NCBI RefSeq assembly: GCF_036507355.1
Contig: NZ_AP027877.1
Length of the DNA: 64,000 bases
Reading direction: 5' to 3' (one strand)
Source: Escherichia coli
GTDB lineage: Bacteria > Pseudomonadota > Gammaproteobacteria > Enterobacterales > Enterobacteriaceae
The notes under the pieces were generated by a model. The model worked only from the letters and a program-made list of their open reading frames with translations. It was not told the origin of the DNA and ran no database searches. Below are positions 60,605 to 64,000 of this stretch, piece after piece. The position numbers and the translations under genes were made by a program. The number at the start of each line of letters is the position of its first letter. Positions within the stretch are counted from its first letter, which is position 1.

Positions 60605-61537
60605 ATGTGGTCAGAATATTCACTCGAAGTTGTTGATGCGGTAGCGCGTAATGGTAGTTTTAGCGCTGCAGCCCAGGAGTTGCATCGCGTTCCTTCTGCG
60701 GTCAGCTATACCGTGCGTCAGCTGGAAGAGTGGCTGGCGGTGCCGCTCTTTGAACGACGGCACCGTGATGTGGAGCTGACCGCTGCCGGAGCGTGGTTTC
60801 TCAAAGAAGGGCGCTCTGTTGTCAAAAAAATGCAGATCACCCGCCAGCAATGTCAGCAGATAGCGAACGGCTGGCGTGGTCAGTTAGCTATCGCAGTGGA
60901 TAATATTGTCAGGCCAGAACGTACACGGCAGATGATCGTTGATTTTTATCGCCATTTTGATGATGTCGAACTTCTTGTCTTTCAGGAAGTGTTCAACGGT
61001 GTCTGGGATGCGCTTTCCGACGGGCGCGTGGAACTGGCGATTGGCGCAACACGCGCGATTCCGGTAGGCGGTCGTTATGCCTTCCGGGATATGGGGATGC
61101 TAAGCTGGAGTTGCGTTGTTGCCAGTCACCACCCGCTGGCGTTGATGGATGGCCCGTTCAGCGATGATACGTTGCGCAACTGGCCGTCGTTGGTGCGCGA
61201 AGACACCTCGCGAACGCTACCTAAACGTATTACCTGGTTGCTGGATAACCAAAAAAGAGTTGTCGTGCCTGACTGGGAATCATCGGCAACCTGTATCTCG
61301 GCAGGATTATGCATAGGGATGGTGCCAACACATTTCGCCAAACCGTGGCTTAATGAGGGGAAGTGGGTAGCACTTGAATTGGAAAACCCCTTCCCGGATT
61401 CGGCATGTTGTCTGACATGGCAGCAAAATGATATGTCGCCTGCGTTAACCTGGCTGCTTGAGTATCTCGGCGATAGTGAGACGCTGAATAAGGAGTGGCT
61501 GCGGGAGCCGGAAGAGACTCCCGCAACGGCTGATTAA
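60605..61537 (+). CDS. ydhB: LysR-family transcriptional regulator (PunR/YdhB)
   Basis: 310 aa with N-terminal LysR HTH; divergent from ydhC. Confidence 0.88.
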
Positions 61538-62559
61538 CGACGATAGTCGCGGAACGGGCCGTCAGCCACGGAGCGGCGTTCAATCAAACGCGGATGCACT
61601 TCAATGGACTGCGGTTCTTCACGTTTGTTGACGATACGATCCAACAGCATGTTGAACGCTGTTTCACCCAGCGAATCTTTTGGCTGATGGATCGTGGTCA
61701 GCGCCGGCGTAAAATAGCGGGCGTTGCGCACGTTATCATAACCAATCAGCGAAACATCCTGCGGGACGCGCAGGCCCATTTCATCAGCAGCACAAAGTGC
61801 GCCCATTGCCATGATATCGCCACCACAGAAAACGGCAGTAGGGCGATGCGGCTGCGACAGGATTTGCTGCATGGCGCGATAACCGGATTCAGGTTCAAAG
61901 TCACCCTGCACAATCCAGCTTTCCGGCACCTTGATCATTGCTTCTTCCATCGCCTTCATAAAACCGGCAAGGCGGCCTGCGCCAGTGTTACGTTCCAGCG
62001 GGCCGGGGATAACGCCGATTTCGCGATGGCCGCGTTCTATCAGATAACGCCCGGCCATGTAGCCGCCTTCGAACGCGTTATCAATGACCGCATCGGTGAA
62101 GTCAGCTTTTGCTTCACCCCAGTCCATCACCACCATTGGGATATGGCGATACTCTTCCAGCATCGCCAGCAACGGCTCTGGGTACTCAGAACACATTACC
62201 AGCAGACCATCGACGCGTTTTTGCGCCATCATCGACAGATAAGCCCGCTGTTTCTCAAGATTGTTCCACGCATTGCCCAGAATCAGGGTGTAACCTTTCT
62301 GGAAGCAATTTTTTTCAACTGCTTCAATGATCTCGGCAAAATAGGCCGCTTCGCTGCTGGTCGCCAGCAAACCGATAGACTTGGTGTGGTTAACCTTCAG
62401 GCTACGCGCCACCGCGCTAGGGGAGTAGTGTAATTCTTTAATCGCTGCCCACACGGCGTTGCGCGTTTCTTCAGCGACGAAACGTGTTTTGTTGATCACG
62501 TGTGACACAGTTGTAGTGGAAACGTTTGCTCGTTTCGCTACATCTTTTATTGTTGCCAT
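61534..62559 (-). CDS. purR: Purine repressor (LacI family)
   Basis: 341-aa [47 protein letters not shown]... Confidence 0.97.
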
Positions 62560-62602
62560 TCCATTTCACTCCAGACCCTAACTTCAGCTCCTGCAAAATC
62601 GC

Positions 62603-62618
62603 AAGGTAAACGTTTGCC
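62603..62618 (-). promoter_or_regulatory. PurR box (autoregulatory operator) in the purR 5' region
   Basis: Minus strand GGCAAACGTTTACCTT against PurR consensus ANGCAAACGTTTNCNT. Confidence 0.65.
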
Positions 62619-62857
62619 TTTACACACCTTACGCACAACAAAAGTGTTGCGGTACGCCGGAAAAACGACACGGAGCGTCAGGAAGGGGTCAATGGCCAGT
62701 ACGCAAATAGTGTAAGCGTGGAATTTTGGCCGATCTTGACGAAAAGGGGAAGTGGTAAAAACACTTATCATTATAAATGACGGGAGATTTTTTCATCACA
62801 GTGTGTAAAAATGCGTAATATCACTTTTTGTGTGGTAATAAAAAAGGAGAAAACTTG

Positions 62858-62947
62858 ATGAGCACCGACCTTAAATTTTCACTGGTAACAACGATTATCG
62901 TCCTCGGTTTGATCGTAGCCGTGGGTTTGACTGCCGCGCTGCACTGA
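62858..62947 (+). CDS. ynhF: Small membrane protein (29 aa)
   Basis: MSTDLKFSLVTTIIVLGLIVAVGLTAALH* preceded by RBS aaggaga and followed by hairpin cgagggag-cgcgtt-ctccctcg. Confidence 0.75.
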   Translation: MSTDLKFSLVTTIIVLGLIVAVGLTAALH

Positions 62948-63112
62948 TTTCCTCTCGAGGGAGCGCGTTCTCCCTCGCATCTCCTTCCTGTTTGTTAGCA
63001 AAATGGCAAAAGTGTTTTCTCTTTTTGTTATTTTCATTTTTTTGTGATTGCTGTCATGCTTTCGCCACTTTAATGAATATCGCGTAATGACGCGAAGAGG
63101 TGGAGATAAGGC

Positions 63113-64000
63113 ATGAAAATTAACTATCCGTTGCTGGCGCTGGCGATTGGCGCGTTTGGTATCGGGACAACGGAGTTCTCGCCAATGGGCTTGTTGCCCG
63201 TCATTGCGCGCGGTGTGGATGTCTCGATTCCCGCTGCCGGAATGTTAATCAGTGCCTATGCAGTTGGCGTAATGGTTGGCGCGCCGCTGATGACGCTTCT
63301 ACTTTCTCATCGTGCCCGCCGCAGTGCGTTGATTTTCCTGATGGCAATTTTCACGCTAGGCAACGTACTTTCCGCCATCGCGCCGGATTATATGACCCTG
63401 ATGCTTTCACGCATTTTGACCAGCCTGAATCACGGAGCATTTTTTGGTTTGGGTTCAGTCGTGGCCGCAAGCGTGGTGCCAAAACATAAACAGGCCAGCG
63501 CAGTTGCCACTATGTTTATGGGGTTAACCCTGGCAAATATCGGTGGCGTGCCGGCGGCGACCTGGTTGGGTGAAACCATCGGCTGGCGGATGTCATTTCT
63601 GGCAACGGCGGGGCTGGGCGTGATTTCAATGGTAAGTCTGTTCTTCTCATTACCTAAAGGTGGTGCAGGGGCACGACCTGAAGTGAAAAAAGAGCTGGCG
63701 GTATTAATGCGTCCGCAGGTGCTGTCTGCATTGCTGACGACGGTACTGGGAGCTGGTGCAATGTTTACTCTCTACACCTATATCTCTCCGGTACTGCAAA
63801 GTATTACCCACGCAACACCAGTGTTCGTCACGGCAATGCTGGTGCTGATTGGTGTCGGATTCTCTATCGGTAACTATCTCGGCGGCAAACTGGCAGATCG
63901 TTCAGTTAACGGCACGTTGAAAGGCTTTTTGTTGTTGTTGATGGTGATTATGCTGGTAATCCCGTTCTTGGCCCGCAATGAGTTCGGCGCAGCTATTAGC
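63113..64000 (+). CDS. ydhP: MFS transporter, N-terminal part (3' end outside the window)
   Basis: ATG at 63113 with RBS gagg; hydrophobic frame open to the window end (MKINYPLLALAIGAFGIGTTEFSPMGLLP...). Confidence 0.85.
   Translation, partial: MKINYPLLALAIGAFGIGTTEFSPMGLLPVIARGVDVSIPAAGMLISAYAVGVMVGAPLMTLLLSHRARRSALIFLMAIFTLGNVLSAIAPDYMTLMLSRILTSLNHGAFFGLGSVVAASVVPKHKQASAVATMFMGLTLANIGGVPAATWLGETIGWRMSFLATAGLGVISMVSLFFSLPKGGAGARPEVKKELAVLMRPQVLSALLTTVLGAGAMFTLYTYISPVLQSITHATPVFVTAMLVLIGVGFSIGNYLGGKLADRSVNGTLKGFLLLLMVIMLVIPFLARNEFGAAIS

Follow-up and report, generated by a model that had tools for sequence, protein, structure and literature searches.

The 29-codon reading frame between purR and ydhP of Escherichia coli is cydH (ynhF), the gene for a single-helix subunit of cytochrome bd-I

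Here we describe the short open reading frame (ORF) that lies between purR and ydhP in a stretch of 64,000 nucleotides of E. coli DNA, which was analyzed as a whole and is referred to as the window in the following. This ORF is E. coli cydH, formerly named ynhF and also known as cydY, a gene that is already known, annotated and structurally characterized. When the different lines of evidence are taken together, we regard it as close to certain that the ORF is cydH and that its product is a CydA-bound single-helix subunit of cytochrome bd-I; in the model we favour, the gene would have a transcript of its own and the subunit would shield heme b595. The features of the region are collected in Table 1.

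Table 1. Features of the purR-cydH-ydhP region, numbered from the first nucleotide of the window
Feature	Position	Strand	Remarks
cydH (ynhF, cydY) coding sequence	62858..62947	+	29 codons and TGA; single-TM subunit of cytochrome bd-I
Shine-Dalgarno sequence AAGGAGA	62844..62850	+	7 nt 5' of the cydH ATG
Candidate extended -10 element TGTAAAAAT for cydH	62804..62812	+	proposed from the conservation pattern; start would be near 62818-62820
GC-rich hairpin after the cydH stop codon	62956..62977	+	stem 62956-62963, loop 62964-62969, stem 62970-62977
purR, divergent upstream neighbour	61534..62559	-	
ydhP, 5' part (MFS transporter), downstream neighbour	63113..64000	+	continues beyond the window
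purR-cydH divergent intergenic region	62560..62857	.	298 nt; strongly conserved
PurR operator, PUR box AGGCAAACGTTTACCT in the purR leader	62604..62619	-	0 mismatches to the PUR-box pattern; palindrome also written AGGTAAACGTTTGCCT
Match to Rfam RF02081 'STnc550 sRNA'	62560..62950	+	396.5 bits versus a gathering score of 48; full length

The identity of the gene was established by comparison with annotated and structurally solved sequences. At the same coordinates RefSeq/PGAP annotates cydH, 'cytochrome bd-I accessory subunit CydH' (WP_000102278.1). The translation of the reading frame, MSTDLKFSLVTTIIVLGLIVAVGLTAALH, is identical in 29 of 29 residues to chain H of PDB entry 6RKO ('Uncharacterized protein YnhF / Cytochrome bd-I ubiquinol oxidase CydH'; E = 4.5e-13), and the same sequence is found in 8 PDB entries; nor does the peptide differ from the chain built in 6RX4. 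The peptide reaches 50.2 bits against a cut-off of 30 with the NCBIfam equivalog NF033411 (small_mem_YnhF), residues 1-29 being aligned to profile positions 1-29 of 29. In a large protein collection the exact sequence is found in a cluster whose 163 members go by the names YnhF or CydH, and a Pfam-A scan of the peptide at E <= 1 matched no family. No difference was found to CydH/CydY/YnhF of strain K-12 (UniProt A5A618; chain H of 6RKO), which has the same 29 residues, the same neighbours purR and ydhP, the same orientation and the same annotation; Thesseling et al. 2019 also place cydH between ydhP and purR (PMC6853902). A preliminary description of this DNA, which was made from the sequence, had matched the ORF to ynhF. 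This identification is correct, but the known function of the protein and the renaming of the gene to cydH had been missed.

The locus is a regular part of the E. coli chromosome. Megablast of positions 62560-63115 against the 5426 complete E. coli RefSeq genomes gave a match in 5425, and at least 80% of the segment is contained in 5421 of them, with cydH annotated and purR and ydhP flanking it. In E. coli PCN061 (NZ_CP006636.1, 1697657-1698989) the two aligned pieces of the query span 1333 bp, as compared to 556 bp for the query itself; the annotation shows an IS1A transposase within this match, indicating an IS1 insertion somewhere in the purR-cydH-ydhP stretch.

The cydH frame starts with the ATG at 62858-62860, comprises 29 sense codons and ends with the TGA at 62945-62947. 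A 29-codon ORF at this place was part of the preliminary description, as were a good ribosome-binding site, a single predicted transmembrane helix and a hairpin of its own downstream, and all of these were recovered. The Shine-Dalgarno sequence is the one listed in Table 1. The means of the Kyte-Doolittle hydropathy over 19 residues reach a maximum of 2.53, which fits one transmembrane helix, and a GC-rich stem of 8 bp begins 8 nt past the stop codon. Within the 3.5 kb around cydH, however, the ORF listing contains 55 ORFs of at least 20 amino acids, so that an ORF of 29 codons could in itself arise by chance and other evidence is needed. The cydH ORF is significant because it is conserved across species.

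For the analysis of conservation, one genome per species (GTDB) was scanned with a degenerate DNA pattern for D-L-K-F-S-x-x-T-T-x-I-V-L in which the third codon positions were left free; start codon, stop codon and Shine-Dalgarno sequence lie outside this pattern. The scan yielded 81 loci. One of them (L032, Anaeroplasmataceae) is a chance match without an ORF and another one (L047) is cut by the end of the locus, leaving 79 loci. These are all from Enterobacteriaceae and include Escherichia, Salmonella, Citrobacter, Enterobacter, Raoultella, Leclercia, Lelliottia, Kosakonia, Cedecea, Buttiauxella, Atlantibacter, Phytobacter, Pluralibacter and other genera. As the pattern requires the conserved residues, the sample is biased and comprises homologues close enough to retain them, without more divergent ones.

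An ATG three codons 5' of the codon for D and a length of exactly 29 codons were found in all 79 loci, followed by TGA in 71 and by TAA in 8 cases, and a Shine-Dalgarno core (GGAG, GGGG or GAGG) is present within 20 nt 5' of the ATG in 79 of 79. The 79 loci contain 77 distinct nucleotide sequences, which are 63-93% identical to the ORF of the window and encode only 43 distinct proteins. Column entropies at codon positions 1, 2 and 3 amount to 0.42, 0.23 and 1.26, respectively. Averaged over pairs of sequences, pN/pS amounts to 0.18 for the whole frame and to 0.27 when only the 18 codons that are free of pattern constraint are considered. Furthermore, the annotated frame is the only one without stops in all 79 loci. 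The cydH reading frame is under purifying selection, and the check for conservation among enterobacteria that had been proposed in the preliminary description thereby turned out in favour of the gene.

Two other reading frames overlap with cydH. In the ORF listing the cydH frame starts at an in-frame TTG at 62828, which gives a product of 39 amino acids, and an antisense ORF of 52 amino acids (62879-63037, - strand) is also present in the window; over the 90-nt segment the antisense frame is free of stops in 70 of the 79 loci. It is nevertheless extremely improbable that one of them is the real gene. The longest antisense ORF ranges from 0 to 147 amino acids among the loci, its boundaries are not conserved, and the positions that vary as third codon positions in cydH serve as first codon positions in the antisense frame. 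As for the extended form, a TTG at codon -10 occurs in only about 3 of 79 loci, an in-frame stop is found 2-7 codons 5' of the cydH ATG in 54 of 79, and the Shine-Dalgarno sequence would fall within the extension. Both the chain solved by cryo-EM and the mass of the intact protein fit 29 residues with formyl-methionine. The 39-residue extension and the antisense ORF were rejected.

Some peculiarities were observed among the orthologues. At position 22 of CydH (codon 62921-62923) only one of the 43 distinct proteins carries valine, namely that of the window (E. coli and E. albertii), and the remaining ones carry G, A, S or T. A metagenome-assembled genome labelled Proteobacteria bacterium (L014) is clearly Enterobacter-like. 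The genome labelled Citrobacter freundii M-21 (L042) has the same CydH protein and the same hairpin-less 3' region as Atlantibacter (L043, L070 and L071); it is unlike all other Citrobacter loci in this respect and may be mislabelled. In these four Atlantibacter-type loci CydH ends in N and not in H, the stop codon is TAA, and the spacer to ydhP is longer (235-340 nt).

Regarding the neighbourhood of cydH, a divergent purR is located 5' of the gene in all orthologous loci whose sequence extends far enough upstream, and the distance between the two ATG codons is 287-307 nt where the N-terminus of PurR could be aligned in full. On the downstream side, 63 of 79 loci carry a co-directional ydhP, and the distance from the cydH stop codon to the ydhP ATG is 154-338 nt (median 166). 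In 12 loci with room for ydhP (Cedecea, Buttiauxella, S. enterica arizonae and Pluralibacter) this gene is absent. Since purR is kept in these 12 loci, cydH is tied to purR and not to ydhP. The cydABX genes are not found in the 64,000-nt window.

The strongly conserved spacer between purR and cydH contains the 5' UTR, operator and promoter of purR on the - strand and the promoter and leader of cydH on the + strand. The core of the PUR box at 62604-62619 is near-invariant across genera. A second match to the PUR-box pattern with 2 mismatches, GAGCAAACGTTTCCAC, is located at 62516-62531 (- strand) inside the purR coding sequence. We take these two boxes to be the two operators of purR autoregulation, which were reportedly described by Rolfes and Zalkin in 1990. 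Another block, GCGTGGAATTTTGGCCGATCTTGACGAAAAGGGGAAG at 62715-62760, is almost invariant over many genera and thus even better conserved than the coding sequence of cydH. It may represent the purR promoter on the - strand, with CAAAAT at 62728-62723 as a -10-like element; the literature search yielded no usable transcription start of purR. High conservation is also seen in the block TGCGGTACGCCGGAAAAACGACACGGAGCGTCAGGAAGGGGTCAATGGCC at 62648-62700, in the area of the purR leader and promoter, which contains TTGACC on the - strand. Inside this block the terminator scan called a - strand hairpin at 62680-62666.

A scan with consensus promoters called no + strand promoter, neither 5' of cydH nor between cydH and ydhP, and visual inspection of the sequence 5' of cydH revealed no recognizable site for FNR, ArcA or CRP to which the reported induction at low oxygen could be assigned. 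Positions T62804, G62805, A62808, A62810, A62811 and T62812 are invariant in an alignment of 77 sequences that represent many genera. From this pattern (TG, -11A and -7T) we infer a candidate extended -10 element, with which the leader would be about 38-40 nt long. A mapped start site of ynhF, together with RNase G-dependent trimming of the 5' end of its mRNA, is mentioned in an RNA-seq study (PMC4191395). According to the model we favour, a promoter in the purR-cydH spacer would give rise to a separate transcript of cydH, which is translated from the ATG at 62858 by means of the AAGGAGA Shine-Dalgarno sequence.

The hairpin 3' of cydH consists of an 8-bp stem (CGAGGGAG and CTCCCTCG) with the loop CGCGTT. 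Its folding energy is -13.6 kcal/mol with a z-score of -3.9 versus mononucleotide shuffles. In a context of 61 nt it is less striking, with -15.8 kcal/mol and a z-score of -1.57 versus dinucleotide shuffles. Hairpins in the orthologous loci were scored sequence by sequence, as the different classes of stems were misaligned by MAFFT and the consensus computed by RNAalifold from this alignment (-0.07 kcal/mol) was therefore meaningless. Of 80 loci, 75 have a stem of at least 6 bp, mostly starting 5-11 nt past the stop codon, with a median energy z-score of -3.9; within 45 nt of the stop codon no such hairpin was found in L040, L042, L043, L070 and L071. The 5' arms of the stems have 43 distinct sequences, and Cedecea and Buttiauxella carry a wholly different GGGCCGC/GCGGCCC stem. 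The occurrence of many different stems at the same position argues for selection on the structure.

The tail 3' of the stem in the window contains 4 T within 9 nt, and most orthologues have 2-5 T. The hairpin was not called in the terminator scan of the window because this tail is not T-rich. Owing to the missing U-tract and the weak z-score in the longer context, termination at the hairpin is not established. Judged from its sequence, the hairpin is probably a weak terminator or a stabilizer of the 3' end, with some read-through towards ydhP. Such read-through would also be compatible with cydH being the first gene of a cydH-ydhP operon, in which the hairpin would act as a regulated attenuator and not mark the 3' end. 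The two genes are co-directional and separated by the distances given above, the hairpin lacks a canonical U-tract, and no promoter was called in between. We nonetheless consider this arrangement unlikely, as the 12 loci without ydhP keep purR-cydH together with a hairpin, showing cydH to be independent of ydhP, and as the spacer beyond the hairpin is poorly conserved. In the favoured model of a separate transcript, the hairpin would most likely define or stabilize the end of a short monocistronic cydH mRNA.

The purR-cydH spacer and the cydH coding sequence are covered by the Rfam model RF02081, which is filed as the enterobacterial non-coding small RNA STnc550, yet its 3' quarter codes for CydH. 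The match ends at the base adjoining the purR start codon on one side and at the third base past the cydH stop codon on the other side. These boundaries suggest that the model was defined as an intergenic region and not by mapped ends of an RNA. The cydH coding sequence makes up the last 90 nt, and the remainder is the divergent control region between purR and cydH. The name 'STnc550' was found in no full text of the literature searched.

A full-length match with 396.5 bits could be taken to mean that the conserved element is this small RNA and that the ORF is incidental. In the cydH part of the RF02081 consensus, however, weakly conserved letters are distributed over codon positions 1, 2 and 3 as 5, 5 and 24 (chi-square p = 2e-5), a strict three-base periodicity that is also seen in the 77 distinct orthologous sequences with their pN/pS of 0.18. 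The consensus structure of RF02081 was also mapped onto an alignment of 77 Enterobacteriaceae sequences. Although 71.5% of the cells are paired, several helices are broken in at least half of the sequences, and the helix that is retained best corresponds to the palindromic PurR operator at 62604-62619. Pairs changed on both sides numbered 14 as compared to 15.6 in shuffled controls (430 of 500 shuffles were at least as high) and further pair types 44 as compared to 51.5; thus, the structure has no covariation support. Finally, CydH has been observed directly by mass spectrometry and cryo-EM, which refutes a small RNA as the exclusive explanation, and we rate the probability that the ORF is incidental as very low. 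The conservation of RF02081 is better explained by a divergent control region and a coding sequence than by a structured RNA, and the family looks like a misclassified mRNA and promoter region.

Both the hairpin and the spacer of 298 nt show signs of constraint. A more speculative possibility is that the cydH transcript is the very RNA listed as STnc550 and in addition a riboregulator, or that the hairpin is a regulated attenuator which couples expression of the transporter gene ydhP or the purR control region to the respiratory state. This idea draws on the position-conserved 3' hairpin, the RNase G-dependent 5' trimming (PMC4191395) and the strict adjacency to purR; we think it improbable.

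The protein encoded by cydH is well documented. E. coli cytochrome bd-I was found to contain a fourth subunit that had not been expected, a single helix of about 3 kDa, and nano-LC-ESI-MS/MS identified it as YnhF (PMC6853902). According to the same work, YnhF is produced at low oxygen, keeps its formyl-methionine and is encoded outside of the cyd operon; the original discovery papers cited there are PMC2614699, PMC2798279 and PMC3018292. CydH is located in a cleft of CydA between TM1 and TM9, opposite of CydX, and is stabilized by a lipid (PMC8951039, PMC12648545). It has been reported to co-occur with bd oxidases that have a long Q-loop. The CydA-CydB-CydX-CydH complex has since been resolved again at 2.4-2.6 Å (PMC13189123 and preprint), and in a top-down proteomics study the intact protein was seen in its formylated form, its sequence being covered to 100% (PMC12529367). 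The translation, the membrane location and the place of CydH in the complex are therefore shown by published mass spectrometry and cryo-EM on the identical sequence, which also settles the question of translation raised in the preliminary description.

For tagged CydH a dual membrane orientation has been reported, as cited in PMC13232886, which counts against the favoured model. In that study full-length CydH was positive in a two-hybrid assay with RNase E fragments, which its authors credit to the transmembrane helix. PMC12529367 assigns CydH to cytochrome bd-II. As PMC6853902 places it in bd-I and bd-II was found to be without such a subunit (PMC8585947), this is probably a slip.

On this basis the 29-residue product retains formyl-methionine and inserts into the inner membrane as one helix (about residues 8-28), which binds to the TM1/TM9 cleft of CydA in the bd-I quinol oxidase on the side opposite of CydX. 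There it would cover the lateral, membrane-facing access to heme b595, and O2 would reach heme d by a narrow channel that starts in CydB. This is in line with the proposal that YnhF closes the spacious O2 entry seen in the Geobacillus enzyme and that O2 enters through the narrow CydB channel (PMC6853902). A knockout or other loss-of-function phenotype of cydH was not found in the literature searched, so that the functional consequence of closing the access to heme b595, the blocking of O2 access, is a structural inference. Another point against the favoured model is that E. coli bd-II (PMC8585947) and the mycobacterial bd oxidase (PMC8324918) both work without such a subunit.

CydH resembles CydX, AppX and CydS, which are likewise peptides of about 30-40 residues with one transmembrane helix that bind to CydA or AppC and co-purify with the oxidase. 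A sequence relationship between CydH and the CydX/YbgT family was not detectable in the Pfam-A scan at E <= 1. Assembly and activity require CydX, which contacts CydA close to heme b558 on the side facing away from CydH; CydH itself occupies the TM1/TM9 site close to heme b595. The two also differ in their genes, since CydX is encoded in the cydABX operon and cydH is an orphan adjoining purR.

Overall, a genuine gene of 29 codons that is missed by automated ORF tracks was recovered from the raw sequence, which speaks for this way of reading DNA. The finding of cydH is correct and adds no new biology. A mildly useful by-product is a point of curation, as RF02081 appears to model a protein-coding mRNA together with divergent promoter and operator DNA and not a structured sRNA. 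The interest of CydH lies in the role of cytochrome bd-I as an antibiotic target, in which the peptide would shape the access of ligands to the di-heme site.
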